Positions 22,115-27,449 of a stretch of 45,103 nt of DNA are shown one piece after another. Within the stretch, counting starts at the first letter, position 1; each line of letters opens with the position of its first letter. Position numbers and translations under genes: made by a program. The stretch lies in IMG/VR virus record IMGVR_UViG_2734482790_000002; one strand, given 5' to 3'. Under the pieces are notes generated by a model, which worked only from the letters and a program-made list of their open reading frames with translations, ran no database searches and had not been told where the DNA came from. This stretch comes from a virus. Taxonomy: Duplodnaviria; Heunggongvirae; Uroviricota; Caudoviricetes.

Positions 22115-22513
22115 ATGATGATGGAAAAAACAGAAAACAAACCTGTTGCAATTGGTGCTGATGCTGCTCCGTTTAAGTTTGAGTTGTCTCAACTGGTGGA
22201 GATGCGCATCAGTGATGAATGGGGTGAGGTTAAAGCCCGCGCGCAGTATGCGGATGGCGAAAACCAGTACTTGATCCACTACAAGGCTGCAGATGGTCGC
22301 GCCACGACGCAGTGGTTTGGTGAGTCAATGCTGGAAGCAACAGAAGATGATCGCCATCCGGGCTGTCCGGTATTTGCCGGTATGAAATTACCGGAAGGTG
22401 CAGTTGAACTGCAGCCGGGTGAGGTGTTCGTAATGTCAGAAGTCATTGATGGTAAACCGCAGTATTCGCGTATTGAAATGAATAGTAAGAGTGCTCGCCT
22501 GATTCGTGAGTAA
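22115..22513 (+). CDS. hypothetical soluble protein (132 aa)
   Basis: ggag SD; followed by a perfect 14-bp inverted-repeat hairpin. Confidence 0.5.
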   Translation: MMMEKTENKPVAIGADAAPFKFELSQLVEMRISDEWGEVKARAQYADGENQYLIHYKAADGRATTQWFGESMLEATEDDRHPGCPVFAGMKLPEGAVELQPGEVFVMSEVIDGKPQYSRIEMNSKSARLIRE

Positions 22514-22560
22514 CAGGCATTACAGCAGCCCTTCACTCTAAGGGGCTGCTGTAATGTGAG

Positions 22561-22593
22561 AAATAAAAAACCGGTCCAGCTACACAGAACCGG
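22561..22593 (-). terminator. candidate minus-strand intrinsic terminator (weak)
   Basis: on the minus strand, a ccggt...accgg hairpin is followed by ttttttattt. Confidence 0.35.
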
Positions 22594-22686
22594 CCGGCGA
22601 AGACCGCCAATACCACCCATGCATTGATGCAACATACTAATGACAATAGCCGCTATTGATGTAAATGCAATGTTATGCATCGACGA

Positions 22687-22728
22687 AAATAAAAAACCGG
22701 CAGGGGAAATCCATTGAAGACTTGCCGG
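22687..22728 (-). terminator. candidate minus-strand intrinsic terminator, second copy of the same tail motif
   Basis: on the minus strand, a ccggcaag...cctgccgg hairpin is followed by ttttttattt; shares aaataaaaaaccgg with the first copy. Confidence 0.4.
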
Positions 22729-22900
22729 TGGCAAAAGTTGCCAATGCTTTTATAACCGTAGTCACAGAGTTACGAAGTGCAACACCGAATGCTGCTGGTA
22801 TATGGATGAATGGCGTTTCAATGATTTTCATCAATTTATTCATCAGCAATGGTGATAATCACTCTCATTTGTGCGGGTCCTTCCGGTGGGGGGGCCTGCC

Positions 22901-22920
22901 ACGGGGCGGCAGCGGCGCGG
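22901..22920. other. cos site (cosN-like cohesive-end region)
   Basis: ACGGGGCGGCAGCGGCGCGG closely resembles the lambda cosN sequence as I recall it (ACGGGGCGGCGACCTCGCGGG); lies about 170 bp upstream of the Nu1-like terminase gene. Confidence 0.6.
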
Positions 22921-22938
22921 AAAACGGCTAGTTTTTGC

Positions 22939-23083
22939 ATTTTCATGGTGGCGGCAGCATGTGATGTAATTTATTGATAATTAAAAGCTATTTCCATTTT
23001 CACCTGTACAATATTTTTTTCTCCCTGTCATTAGACCAGTTTGCAATTCATTGAAATATATAAATAAACCTGATTTTCACCTG
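22939..23083. repeat. cosB-like repeated elements (candidate terminase small-subunit binding sites)
   Basis: attttcatggtg (about 22939-22950), attttcacctg (about 22996-23006) and attttcacctg (about 23073-23083). Confidence 0.45.
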
Positions 23084-23087
23084 CCAG

Positions 23088-23636
23088 ATGGAGTTGCTTA
23101 TGTCAAATGTGAGCGGGATCGGTGATGCTTATTACTGGAGTGTTTTTAAAATCGCCGAGGCCTTTGGGCTTCACCGGGACACAGTAAAAAAACGGCTCCT
23201 CGCGGCCAACACTCCTGTGGCTGCGACTGTCAGGGGGAACCCCGTTTACGCCCTGCAGCATGTCGGGCCTGCCCTGTTTAGTGTGAAGCATGAGGCAGCA
23301 GACTCTGTTCATGATCCATCCCGTATGGAGCCGAAAGAGAGAAAGGACTGGTACCAGTCTGAAAATGAAAGGATCAAGCTGGAAAAGGAGCAGCGAAAAC
23401 TCATCCCCGTTGATGAAGTAGTCATCGTCTATTCGTCCATGAGAAAGGCTGTCGTCCAGGTTCTGGAGACAATTCCGGATGTTCTTGAACGCGATTGCGC
23501 CCTGACTCCTCAGGCCGTCGGCGTTGTACAGCAGGCCATTGATGACCTGCGATACACTCTTCAGGAAAAATCCTACGAGGCTTGTGCTGCTGAATTAATT
23601 CCTGATGAGGAAGGAGAGAGTCTCCAGGAGGAATAA
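23088..23636 (+). CDS. terminase small subunit (Nu1-like, N-terminal HTH)
   Basis: 182 aa; immediately upstream of and overlapping the large subunit; preceded by the cos-like region. Confidence 0.7.
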   Translation: MELLMSNVSGIGDAYYWSVFKIAEAFGLHRDTVKKRLLAANTPVAATVRGNPVYALQHVGPALFSVKHEAADSVHDPSRMEPKERKDWYQSENERIKLEKEQRKLIPVDEVVIVYSSMRKAVVQVLETIPDVLERDCALTPQAVGVVQQAIDDLRYTLQEKSYEACAAELIPDEEGESLQEE

Positions 23637-25735
23637 TGGGTTTTTCATCAGCCCGAAATTTGGGAAGGGACATATCGGCAGGATTTTCCCCACCACGTCG
23701 CATGCCGATTTCGGAAGCTGTTAAAAAATTCATGCGTGTTCCCAAGGGGGCTGGTAACTCGGTGCCATGGGATCCTGAACTGACACCCTACATCATTGAG
23801 CCCATGAACTGCCTGGCATCGCGTGAATACGATGCGGTGATTTTTGTTGGTCCTGCGCGAACAGGGAAGACCATTGGTCTGATCGATGGATGGATTGTCT
23901 ATACCATCGTTTGCGATCCTTCGGACATGCTCGTTGTGCAGATGACCGAAGATAAGGCCCGCGAGCATTCTAAAAAGCGCCTCGACAGAACGTTCAGAAG
24001 CAGTGCGGCGGTAAAGAAAAGAATGAGTCCACGTCGTAACGACAATAATGTCCATGATAAGACGTTCAGGGATGGCTCGTTCCTTAAAATTGGTTGGCCC
24101 TCGGTCAACATTATGTCGTCGTCGGATTACCGGTTTGTCGCCTTAACCGATTACGACCGTTTTCCGGAGAATATCGACAGCGAGGGTGATGGTTTCTCCC
24201 TGGGCTCAAAACGTACCACCACATTTATGTCCGCCGGGATGACTCTGGTGGAGAGCTCGCCGGGACGTGACATCTGCGACAGCAAATGGCGACGTAAGTC
24301 GCCTCATGAAGCGCCACCGACGACTGGTATTCTTTCCCTTTACAATCGTGGTGACCGCCGCCGCTGGTACTGGCCATGTCCGCACTGCGGTGAATATTTT
24401 CAGCCAGCCATGGATGCCATGACCGGCTACCGTAATGAACCGGATCCCTTTAAAGCCAGTGAGGCGGCGTATCTACTTTGCCCGCACTGCAGCGGCATTA
24501 TCACTGCGGAGAAAAAGCGTGAGCTCAATAGTGCAGGAGTCTGGTTGCGTGAAGGTCAGGTCATTGATCGTAACGGCAACGTTTCCGGTGAACCGCGCCG
24601 CTCCCGTATCGCCAGTTTCTGGATGGAAGGGCCAGCTGCTGCGTATCAGACCTGGGCGCAACTGGTTTACAAATTACTGACTGCAGAACAGGAGTATGAA
24701 GCGACAGGAAGCGAAGAAACACTCAGGGCGGTTATCAACACCGACTGGGGATTGCCTTATCTTCCTCGTGCCAGCATGGAGCAACGAAAAAGTGAACTGC
24801 TTGAGCAGCGGGCAGAGCCAGTTCCTTCCCGCAGTGTGCCGGATGGCGTTAATTTCCTTGTGGCGACAGTGGATGTGCAGGCGGGACATCATCGCCGTTT
24901 TGTGGTTCAGGTAACGGGCTATGGCAGCCGTGGCGAACGCTGGATTATTGATCGTTACAACATCACGCAGTCATTGCGCGGTGACAGCGACGGGGAGAGC
25001 CAGCGAATTGATCCGGCCAGCTATCCGGAAGACTGGGATGTCCTGCTGACGGATGTTTTTCATAAAAGCTGGCCGCTGGCCTCCGACCCTTCTCAACAAA
25101 TGCGACTGATGGCAATGGCGGTGGACTCCGGCGGTGAAGACGGGGTCACTGATAATGCCTATAAATTCTGGCGTCGTTGCCGTCGTGATGGCCTTGGTAA
25201 ACGTATTTACCTGTTTAAGGGCGACAGCATCCGGCGCGCAAAACTGATCACCCGTACATTCCCTGATAACACCGGACGAACGGGCCGACGGGCGCAGGCT
25301 GCGGGTGATGTGCCTCTCTGGCTTCTTCAGACTGACGCTCTGAAAGACCGGGTTAATAACGCGTTATGGCGTGATTCTCCCGGTCCTGGCTATGTGCATT
25401 TTCCCGACTGGCTGGGGAGCTGGTTTTACGACGAACTGACGTATGAAGAGCGGAGCAGTGACGGGAAATGGAGTAAGCCGGGGCGCGGTGCGAACGAAGC
25501 CTTTGACCTGATGGTGTATGCCGAGGCGCTGGTCATTCTGCATGGGTACGAGAAAATTCAGTGGCCTGATGCGCCGGAGTGGGCGTGCCGGGAAACCTGG
25601 CTGGAGTGTGTCAGTGACAACGCGGAGCCACCTGTTCTGCCGGAGCCGGAACGTCCCCCGGCCAGAAAAAAGAAACGAAAAAAAATGGCACCCGATGAGG
25701 ATAACCCCTGGGTGACATCCGGAGGATGGTTATGA
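23636..25735 (+). CDS. terminase large subunit (lambda gpA family)
   Basis: 699 aa; gpA-like architecture including the WPCPHCGEYFQP zinc motif (lambda VACPHCGEEQYL). Confidence 0.85.
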   Translation: MGFSSARNLGRDISAGFSPPRRMPISEAVKKFMRVPKGAGNSVPWDPELTPYIIEPMNCLASREYDAVIFVGPARTGKTIGLIDGWIVYTIVCDPSDMLVVQMTEDKAREHSKKRLDRTFRSSAAVKKRMSPRRNDNNVHDKTFRDGSFLKIGWPSVNIMSSSDYRFVALTDYDRFPENIDSEGDGFSLGSKRTTTFMSAGMTLVESSPGRDICDSKWRRKSPHEAPPTTGILSLYNRGDRRRWYWPCPHCGEYFQPAMDAMTGYRNEPDPFKASEAAYLLCPHCSGIITAEKKRELNSAGVWLREGQVIDRNGNVSGEPRRSRIASFWMEGPAAAYQTWAQLVYKLLTAEQEYEATGSEETLRAVINTDWGLPYLPRASMEQRKSELLEQRAEPVPSRSVPDGVNFLVATVDVQAGHHRRFVVQVTGYGSRGERWIIDRYNITQSLRGDSDGESQRIDPASYPEDWDVLLTDVFHKSWPLASDPSQQMRLMAMAVDSGGEDGVTDNAYKFWRRCRRDGLGKRIYLFKGDSIRRAKLITRTFPDNTGRTGRRAQAAGDVPLWLLQTDALKDRVNNALWRDSPGPGYVHFPDWLGSWFYDELTYEERSSDGKWSKPGRGANEAFDLMVYAEALVILHGYEKIQWPDAPEWACRETWLECVSDNAEPPVLPEPERPPARKKKRKKMAPDEDNPWVTSGGWL

Positions 25736-25944: not shown

Positions 25945-27449
25945 TGGCAATTCTGGATGATGTGATTGGTGTTTTTTCTCCAGGCTGGAAAGCGGCGAGG
26001 TTGCGCTCAAGAGCGTTAATCCGCGCTTATGAGGCCGTGAAACCCACACGCACACACAAAGCCCGACGGGAAAACCGTTCTGCCGACCAGCTCAGTAAGT
26101 ACGGGGCGGTTTCCCTGCGGGAGCAGGCCCGTTTTCTGGACATCAATCATGACCTGGTAATCGGTGTTTTCGACAAACTTGAGGAGCGGGTGATTGGTGC
26201 AAAGGGGATCATTGTTGAACCACAACCATTACTGAAAAATGGTGATATGGCTACAGAGCTGGCAATGATTATCCGTCGTTTGTGGGCGGAATGGTCTGTC
26301 AGTCCGGATGTGACCGGGCAGCATACGCGCCCCATGCTCGAACGTCTGCTGTTGCGTACCTGGTTACGTGATGGAGAAGTGTTTGCCCAGATGGTCAGAG
26401 GCGCAGGTGCCGGGCTGGCGCGGACTGCCGGTGTGCCTTTCTGGCTCGAGGCAATGGAGCCGGATTTTGTGCCCATGCTCAGTGATGAGTCTGCGGGAAT
26501 GAATCAGGGGGTTTTTCTGGATAAATGGGGCAGGCCGAAAAAATACCTGGTTTATAAAAATTATCCGGTTACCGGGCGACAGAGTGAAACCAAAGAGATC
26601 GCCGCTGAAAATATGGTGCATCTGAAGTTTACCCGCCGCCTTCATCAGACGCGTGGCACATCCATGTTGTCCGGTGTGCTGATGCGGATCAGTGCGCTTA
26701 AGGAATATGAAGATGCTGAGCTGGTAGCGGCGCGCGTTGCTGCGGCACTGGGGCTGTATATTCGTAAAGGAGACGGGCAGGATTATGAGGAACCTGTGAC
26801 GAATAAAGATAATGATCGGGAACTGCATATCACTCCCGGCATTATTTATGACGATCTGCGTAAGGGGGAAGATATTGGCATGGTCAAATCTGATCGGCCT
26901 AACCCTAATCTGGAAACTTTTCGTAATGGTCAGTTGCGGGCCATGGCGGCGGGCACTCGTCTGAGTTTTTCCAGTGCAGCACGTAACTATAACGGTACCT
27001 ACAGTTCCCAGCGACAGGAGCTGGTTGAGTCCACCGATGGCTATCTGATCCTGCAGGACTGTTTTATTGGTGCTGTAACCCGTCCGGTGTACCGGGCATG
27101 GCTGAATATGGTGGTTGCCGCGGGGTTGCTGAAAATTCCGTCGGATGTGGATATAAAAACATTATATAACGCAACATATTCTGGTCCGGTTATGCCGTGG
27201 ATTGATCCTGTCAAGGAAGCTGAAGCCTGGAAAATCCAGATTCGTGGTGGTGCGGCAACAGAATCAGACTGGGTGCGCGCCAGTGGTAGTAATCCGGATG
27301 ATGTTAAACGTCGGCGCAAGGCCGAAATTGATGAAAACCGCAGGCTGGATCTGGTGTTTGATACCGATCCTGCCTGCGATAAAGGAGGTGGTAATGCTGA
27401 AACAGAACGCGTGGTTTCGCGGCGAACCGAAGGCCAGTATGAAGAATAA
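25944..27449 (+). CDS. portal protein (lambda gpB family)
   Basis: 501 aa; follows gpW; lambda-like order. Confidence 0.8.
   Translation: MAILDDVIGVFSPGWKAARLRSRALIRAYEAVKPTRTHKARRENRSADQLSKYGAVSLREQARFLDINHDLVIGVFDKLEERVIGAKGIIVEPQPLLKNGDMATELAMIIRRLWAEWSVSPDVTGQHTRPMLERLLLRTWLRDGEVFAQMVRGAGAGLARTAGVPFWLEAMEPDFVPMLSDESAGMNQGVFLDKWGRPKKYLVYKNYPVTGRQSETKEIAAENMVHLKFTRRLHQTRGTSMLSGVLMRISALKEYEDAELVAARVAAALGLYIRKGDGQDYEEPVTNKDNDRELHITPGIIYDDLRKGEDIGMVKSDRPNPNLETFRNGQLRAMAAGTRLSFSSAARNYNGTYSSQRQELVESTDGYLILQDCFIGAVTRPVYRAWLNMVVAAGLLKIPSDVDIKTLYNATYSGPVMPWIDPVKEAEAWKIQIRGGAATESDWVRASGSNPDDVKRRRKAEIDENRRLDLVFDTDPACDKGGGNAETERVVSRRTEGQYEE

Follow-up and report, generated by a model that had tools for sequence, protein, structure and literature searches.

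A probable lambda-like cos site ahead of a DUF1441 small terminase gene in a lambdoid prophage of the cdtI/Tritos type

The best described counterpart of the locus studied here is the cos site of phage lambda, in which cosQ serves as the signal for termination of packaging. The cosN of lambda has a two-fold symmetry of 10/16 bp, and in its cosB the R3 site lies at bp 50-65 and the R2 site is inverted (PMC9026076). Among lambda-like cos phages, which include Gifsy-1, natural variation in cosN is found mainly in bp 7-12, while cosQ, the left half of cosN and the CG flanks are conserved; Feiss and colleagues noted departures of Gifsy-1 from lambda in bp 8, 9, and 11 (PMC4669245). PMC12315714 and PMC9303873 both cite a dedicated survey of this natural variation (Vahanian et al. 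2017). Large terminases of the GpA family are taken to make 5'-extended cohesive ends, and the 12-nt 5' overhang of phage LLS was deduced from a comparison with mEp213, in an analysis credited to M. Feiss (PMC12315714). The LLS paper was the sole find of a literal literature search for the overhang strings considered below. Our search of the literature found no experimental dissection of a cosB that accompanies a DUF1441-type small terminase.

We analyzed a stretch of viral DNA of 45,103 nucleotides (hereafter, the window) in which an initial annotation had placed a lambda-like cos site upstream of the terminase genes. Our analysis indicates, with a probability of about 0.85, that positions 22875-23099 are the cos site of a lambdoid prophage of the cdtI/Tritos type. 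Elements of this kind are known, and public phage records already contain the site implicitly.

cosQ, cosN and the predicted nicks

The elements of the region and the two genes that follow are listed here, with bp numbers counted from the predicted left end (bp 1 is position 22904).

22875-22881, + strand: cosQ heptamer GGGTCCT, identical to lambda 48473-48479
22902-22917, no strand assigned: predicted cosN, CG-GGGCGGCAGCGG-CG, from the flanks and spacing of lambda and Gifsy-1, symmetry and record ends
22916-22936 (bp 13-33), + strand: conserved cosN-proximal element CGCGGAAAACGGCTAGTTTTT, from conservation; holds an AAAAC/GTTTT dyad
22934-22950 (bp 31-47), + strand: repeat copy 1, TTTGCATTTTCATGGTG; its ATTTTCA at bp 36 is kept in relatives
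22950-22966 (bp 47-63), - strand: element b, GGCGGCAGCATGTGATG, second R3 candidate, located where lambda has R3
22967-22979, - strand: perfect match to the IHF-binding consensus, TATCAATAAATTA (WATCAANNNNTTR), candidate analogue of lambda I1
22991-23007 (bp 88-104), + strand: repeat copy 2, TTTCCATTTTCACCTGT, with the exact 11-mer ATTTTCACCTG; candidate R2 equivalent
23069-23085 (bp 166-182), + strand: repeat copy 3, CCTGATTTTCACCTGCC, with the exact 11-mer; candidate R1 equivalent
23100-23636, + strand: small terminase (TerS), 178 aa, DUF1441 (PF07278, E 1.7e-44; phrog_141, E 4e-65)
23636-25735, + strand: large terminase (TerL), 699 aa, GpA family, ATPase and endonuclease (PF05876, E 9e-80; PF20454, E 2e-86)

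The assignment starts from the resemblance to lambda. As the initial annotation had stated, ACGGGGCGGCAGCGGCGCGG is present at 22901-22920 with aaaacggctagtttttgcattttcatgg directly after it, and the lambda sequence it had given for comparison is correct, being that of the joined ends of NC_001416. The alignment it had proposed as a check, run here between 22875-22948 and lambda from cosQ to bp 45, gave 46 identities in 75 positions and a score of 15, when 2000 shuffles of the lambda sequence scored -18.8 +/- 4.9 with a maximum of -2 (z about 7). This homology reaches 30 bp farther left than the span originally marked, 22901-23083, which covers cosN and the repeats but misses cosQ, a part of the site. 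Most matches in Escherichia coli genomes start at 22870-22875, the 5' edge of cosQ. The broader claim of a lambda-like site is borne out, with cosQ, cosN, an IHF site, repeats and the genes of TerS and TerL following one another in the lambda order and at approximately the lambda distances.

Taking the features by which cosN sites are recognized in PMC4669245 and PMC9026076, we found identity to lambda, CG at both nick positions, partial symmetry and an intact cosQ. The flanks ACG and CGCGG at the two nick positions and the left half GGGCGG are the same in the window, lambda, and Gifsy-1, and the 12 bp between the conserved ACG and CGCGG are free of indels relative to either phage. The two-fold symmetry is 10/16 bp, as in lambda. 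On these grounds we predict a nick after 22903 on the top strand, 22 bp from the end of cosQ (23 bp in lambda), and one after 22915 on the bottom strand, which would leave a 12-nt 5' overhang, GGGCGGCAGCGG, at 22904-22915. The predicted overhang is identical to that of lambda, GGGCGGCGACCT, at 8 of 12 positions. Several differences from lambda had been claimed, and they are found at bp 8, 9, 11, and 12, all of them within bp 8-12 and hence in the half whose natural variability is described in PMC4669245. Within the 45-kb window, the pattern CGGGGCGG-N6-CGCG is matched exactly at a single place.

The ends of public phage records are consistent with these positions. When 22600-23700 was compared by BLAST with phage sequences, the records of cdtI (AB285204) and Tritos (OV696610) were seen to start at the equivalent of 22904, that is, at bp 1; the cdtI record ends in ...GGGTCCTTCCGGTGGGGTGGCCTGCCACG. 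The Hafnia phage yong2 shares the conserved right flank and has a TerS of the DUF1441 family; its linear record starts with CGCGGGAAACGG (bp 13, the equivalent of 22916) and ends at bp 12. Its last 12 nt follow ...ACCGAG, so the break in this record coincides with the nick predicted for the bottom strand. In the LLS record, the first 12 nt, which are homologous in position, are labeled as a 5' cohesive site. We regard the agreement of the cdtI, Tritos, and yong2 record ends with the predicted nicks as supportive, not as proof.

One record deviates: that of mEp460_4F5 (LR595868) starts 5 nt before the predicted nick and is short of 2 nt of cosN (within positions 1-30, GGGCGGGAGCG-CGG versus GGGCGGGAGCGTCGCGG). 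Both oddities probably arose during assembly, as an artefact of the cohesive ends.

The record boundaries of cdtI, Tritos, and yong2 bear on the possibility that the site is a cos site with nicks that are not 12 nt apart or not at 22903 and 22915, so that the overhang would have another length or register. PMC9303873, citing Vahanian et al. 2017, gives 7 to 12 nt for the overhangs of lambda-like cosN sites, and the related lambda-like phage Cr-LKS3 has a 9-nt overhang (PMC9303873). The right flank of VT1-Sakai is GCGG instead of CGCGG, and Gifsy-2 has 14 bp, GGTGGCTTCGGGCT, between the conserved ACG and CGCGG flanks (positions 395-420 of its locus), a spacing from which its overhang length may differ. 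In the window, however, the interval from ACG to CGCGG shows no indel relative to lambda or Gifsy-1, and the cdtI, Tritos, and yong2 records have their boundaries at bp 1 and bp 12/13. Hence, a different length or register seems very unlikely, and the homology with lambda makes cutting by terminase into 12-base sticky ends the most likely outcome.

Repeats and the IHF site between cosN and the small terminase gene

Three repeats of the form ATTTTCA(C/T)(C/G)TG had been reported between cosN and the small terminase gene. Two of them are exact: the pattern occurs twice in the 45-kb window (expected 0.18), at 22996-23006 and 23073-23083, each time as ATTTTCACCTG. The first copy, at 22939-22950, reads ATTTTCATGGTG; it contains ATTTTCA but departs from the pattern by one extra base. 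In their left arms (TTTGCATTTTCA and TTTCCATTTTCA), copies 1 and 2 agree in 11 of 12 letters. The three copies are direct repeats, each on the + strand. The heptamer ATTTTCA occurs 27 times in the window, of which 5 are within the 543 bp from 22824 to 23366. Two of these five are additional copies, one at 22824-22830 (+), 80 bp upstream of cosN, and one at 23360-23366 (-), inside the TerS gene, which is reminiscent of the accessory rR2 of N15.

The positions of the repeats are kept in relatives. Copy 2, at about bp 94, has the same place in cdtI and in a lineage whose TerS is 74% identical; copy 3, which lies 17 nt ahead of the TerS start codon, is kept at about bp 171 in that same lineage. 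The 11-mers themselves span bp 93-103 and 170-180, to be compared with about 105-120 and 152-167 for R2 and R1 of lambda. The IHF consensus at 22967-22979, one of three perfect matches in the 45 kb, falls between copies 1 and 2. A same-strand match of 9/9 or 8/9 at bp 62-64 was found in 10 of the 15 DUF1441-type lineages scored, the window included, and some of these have a TerS only about 40% identical. The region has repeats and a perfect IHF consensus at lambda-like positions, with copies that are all direct, unlike those of lambda, and with two candidates for the R3 equivalent.

Closest to cosN, CGCGGAAAACGGCTAGTTTTT is nearly invariant over DUF1441-type cos sites of any subfamily, with TerS only 40-100% identical, and lambda has it in part (CGCGG..GCTA.TT). 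We infer that this element is probably a portion of the zone where terminase interacts with cosN. Copy 1 may be either the R3 equivalent or a part of this conserved cosN-proximal region.

The second option leaves the cos assignment intact but takes copy 1 (22939-22950) out of the set of TerS sites and makes element b the R3 site, inverted relative to R2, so that the IHF bend would be flanked, as in lambda, by an inverted pair of R3 (element b) and R2. We consider this a real possibility, at somewhat less than even odds. Element b covers bp 47-63 where lambda R3 covers bp 50-65, and contains CATGTGA, which agrees at 6 of 7 positions with the inverted repeat core TCACCTG. Yet the best inverted match across the IHF site of the window reaches 6 of 10 (p about 1), whereas the direct match between copies 1 and 2 is significant (9 of 10, p about 0.02), and element b of the majority allele matches only poorly in inverted orientation. 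Comparison with other lineages is similarly divided. The VT1-like, phi458-like, Trabulsiella, and P0028 lineages have an element at bp 45-60 with an inverted partner at bp 95-101, these partners being weak (7-8 of 10 matches, individually not significant). Lambda and Gifsy-1 have ATTTTC at bp 36-42 as well, although their R sites are unrelated, and copy 1 is common to mEp460 and phi458, whose TerS differs. By contrast, ATTTTCA is found at bp 36 (+), 83 (-), and 170 (+) in the lineage whose TerS is 74% identical, so that copy 1 counts there as a true repeat.

The repeat orientations in that 74% lineage follow the R3/R2/R1 pattern of lambda, and those in the window are all direct. A search for a lambda-style inverted R3/R2 pair recovered it in the lambda control and in one relative, not in the window.

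These features raise the question of whether the DUF1441-type cosB is a packaging-specificity class that has escaped study, with a nucleoprotein geometry unlike that of lambda. The suggestion draws on the direct ATTTTCA repeats, on the invariant IHF site at bp 62-76 from cosN, on the conserved CGCGG(A/G)AAACGGCTAGTTTTT by cosN, which is independent of TerS specificity, and on the modular exchange of cosQ-cosN and cosB-TerS described below. We offer it tentatively and think it rather doubtful. When the TerS recognition helix was compared with the repeat sequence across lineages, no clear covariation rule emerged.

Terminase genes, conservation and exchange of modules

The small terminase had been described as Nu1-like. 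This is right in the sense of remote homology and wrong as to its Pfam family, which is DUF1441 and not Nu1. The profile phrog_141 is annotated as 'terminase small subunit'; the protein cross-matches the PHROG of lambda Nu1 (phrog_57, E 1e-9), and lambda Nu1 in turn matches phrog_141 (E 6e-8). An AlphaFold (AF2) model of the protein (mean pLDDT 81) shows long helices after an N-terminal domain of beta-alpha-alpha-wing-alpha topology. The best Foldseek matches of this model were MerR-type winged helix-turn-helix proteins (RacA, BldC, excisionases) and 7lwr_A, a 54-residue chain of a viral DNA-packaging entry; none was significant, the best E value being 0.16. A profile search of TerS against PDB sequences gave nothing significant. 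The reciprocal PHROG matches and the predicted fold thus point to a Nu1-type small terminase with an N-terminal winged helix-turn-helix. We prefer the start codon at 23100 over that at 23088 because of the GGAG at 23090-23093; with the predicted left end as bp 1, this ATG falls at bp 197, and lambda Nu1 has its own at bp 191.

The neighborhood of the gene is that of a lambdoid packaging module. The GpA-family large terminase follows just downstream of cos, then an ORF of 72 aa in the position of lambda gene W, then a portal of the lambda family (PF05136). The structural half of the window is about 87% identical to cdtI, Tritos, and mEp460. Upstream, the last ORF before cos (22115-22513, 132 aa) has no Pfam match. 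Between it and cos there are hairpin or terminator-like structures at 22520-22556, 22576-22606 (-), and 22727-22743 (+); four terminator-like sites were found when 1.1 were expected. Small ORFs at 22665-22931 (+), 22849-22977 (+), and 22673-22849 (-) overlap or abut cos, and their equivalents are annotated as hypothetical proteins in some phage records. The two on the + strand, which run through cosQ and cosN, are probably spurious.

By homology with lambda, the winged helix-turn-helix of the small terminase would bind the cosB repeats with the help of host IHF, which may bend the DNA at 22967-22979. This assembly would place two subunits of the GpA-type large terminase on cosN, with its partial symmetry, where they would make the staggered nicks, 12 bp apart, after 22903 on top and after 22915 on the bottom. 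Separation of the strands would expose the overhang. Packaging would then proceed rightward, with the terminase genes first, until the cosQ-cosN of the next concatemer unit is met and cut.

The terminase type also speaks to a wholly different account, that there is no packaging site here, the likeness to cosN being a chance product of G+C-rich sequence, the repeats regulating the late operon, and the phage packaging by headful. Short G+C-rich motifs do recur by chance, and allowing one mismatch in the cosN pattern yields one further match, at 26102. Chance would have to account for the extended lambda homology, which includes cosQ, and for the conservation footprint described below, next to a large terminase of the family of lambda gpA and in accord with three phage records that end at the predicted nicks. 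Instead of a pac-type terminase without fixed ends, we found a TerL of the GpA cos type and a complete cosQ-cosN-cosB. A search for sigma-70 or promoter-like sites in 22400-23200 found none, which rules out the repeats as promoter elements. We give this account next to no weight.

To describe the conservation of the site, we used 60 unique cos sequences, drawn from 80 IMG/VR loci with TerS at least 99% identical, the window, cdtI, Tritos, and one locus from a scan of genome contigs with TerS, which gave two loci. In these relatives, cosQ, the GGGCGG of bp 1-6, and the IHF core are invariant, and there is almost no variation in the CCACG ahead of the predicted top-strand nick. In copy 3, the 10-mer TTTTCACCTG is unchanged in 58 of the 60, and copy 2 varies in close relatives (TTTTCAGCTG, TTTTTACCTG). 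The spacer between cosQ and cosN and everything upstream of cosQ vary freely. Sites like this one are common across public phage and E. coli genomes: 932 of 5,426 complete E. coli genomes have a match to 22700-23300, mostly from cosQ into TerS, although only 47 of the matches cover at least 80% of that query.

This footprint also helps to judge whether the site is a relic in a defective prophage, out of use. The element appears integrated, with cos in the middle of the window and an integrase-bearing region at its left. Nevertheless, the ORFs of TerS, TerL, and the portal are full length, all cos subsites of the window fit the conserved consensus of the 60 relatives, and a near-identical system is active in Tritos. 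With a TerS that is 99.4% identical and with the same cosB, this phage makes plaques and virions, which shows the system to be functional in at least one relative. We therefore find a relic unlikely, and favor none of the three alternatives (another overhang length, a relic, or the absence of a packaging role) over a cos site with 12-nt ends.

The cosN allele of the window is a minority one in its TerS group: GGGCGGCAGCGG is found in 2 of the 60 unique sequences, and the majority has GGGCGGGAGCGT. The changes that set the window allele apart form a patch at bp 7, 12, 21, 40, 46, and 60-62. Over bp 13-43 this patch resembles a locus with 83% TerS identity, which suggests patch recombination.

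The exact 20-mer at cosN, ACGGGGCGGCAGCGGCGCGG, was found in 69 IMG/VR contigs, where it adjoins at least five types of cosB and TerS (true Nu1-like, VT1-Sakai-like, phi458-like, mEp043-like, and P0017-like). Since the same 20-mer stands beside so many TerS types, cosQ-cosN and cosB-TerS are exchanged as separate modules. A similar arrangement is seen in mEp460 and phi458, which share cosQ-cosN-copy 1 (22874-22946) with the window and have a different cosB and a TerS only 42% identical. mEp460 also shares TerL from about codon 33 (23732 onward). This pattern of sharing points to a cassette swap bounded inside the N-terminus of TerL.

Two further loci show other arrangements. Upstream of a TerS with 87% identity from a soil metagenome (L094, positions 470-800), cosN is not recognizable and only an R1-like ATCACCTGCCAGG is left. 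The cosB of Trabulsiella guamensis has, upstream of TerS, a 78-bp tandem duplication with the unit TTTTCATGGGACACC...-IHF-like site-...TTTGAGGTGGG.

Comparison with described cos systems

The finding is an ordinary one, and its value lies first in annotation: the site would set the genome ends and the direction of packaging for this prophage and many relatives in E. coli, and it identifies the DUF1441 protein as the small terminase. It adds one instance to the known natural variation of cosN, concentrated in bp 7-12, and illustrates the modular exchange of cosQ-cosN versus cosB-TerS.

Compared with lambda, the window has the same order of subsites, cosQ, nick flanks, left half of the overhang, 12-bp nick spacing and 10/16 symmetry. 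Each has an IHF site, in the window a predicted one, after the first repeat and before the second, and a GpA terminase and a portal of the lambda family come next; the 11-mers and the IHF consensus of the window stand where lambda has R2, R1, and I1. The differences concern four positions of the overhang (given above) and, above all, cosB. The lambda repeats, CGTTTCC(T/G)TTCT, are unrelated to ATTTTCACCTG, and lambda R2 is inverted whereas the copies in the window are all direct. The cosB of the window begins about 14 bp closer to cosN, with copy 1 at a place where lambda has no R site, and cosQ is 1 bp closer to cosN. The DUF1441 TerS is only remotely related to Nu1.

The cosN of the Salmonella phage Gifsy-1, GGGCGGCAGCGT, is closer: of its 12 overhang positions, 11 agree with the window, the exception being position 12 (T in Gifsy-1, G in the window). 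Gifsy-1 also has the cosQ and the left flank ACG of the window. However, Gifsy-1 has a true TerS of the Nu1/phage 21 type and a lambda-like cosB, which rules it out as a member of the same TerS family and leaves only cosN as close. The simple cosB phage N15 has, like the window, a lambda-like cosN that varies in bp 7-12.

LLS, mEp213, and mEp043 combine, as the window does, a DUF1441 TerS with a GpA TerL. Their putative cos, GGGCGGCGCGCT, has the same cosQ, the same flanks and the conserved CGCGGGAAACGGCTAGTTTTT element. Their TerS is only about 41% identical to that of the window, and their shorter cosB puts the ATG of TerS at bp 130 and has repeats of the (CAT)n type. The nearest systems are those of cdtI, Tritos, and hundreds of E. 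coli prophages, in which TerS is 99.4% identical and cosB, the IHF site, R2, and R1 are the same; they differ from the window at bp 7 and 12 of the overhang and at further positions between bp 21 and 62.
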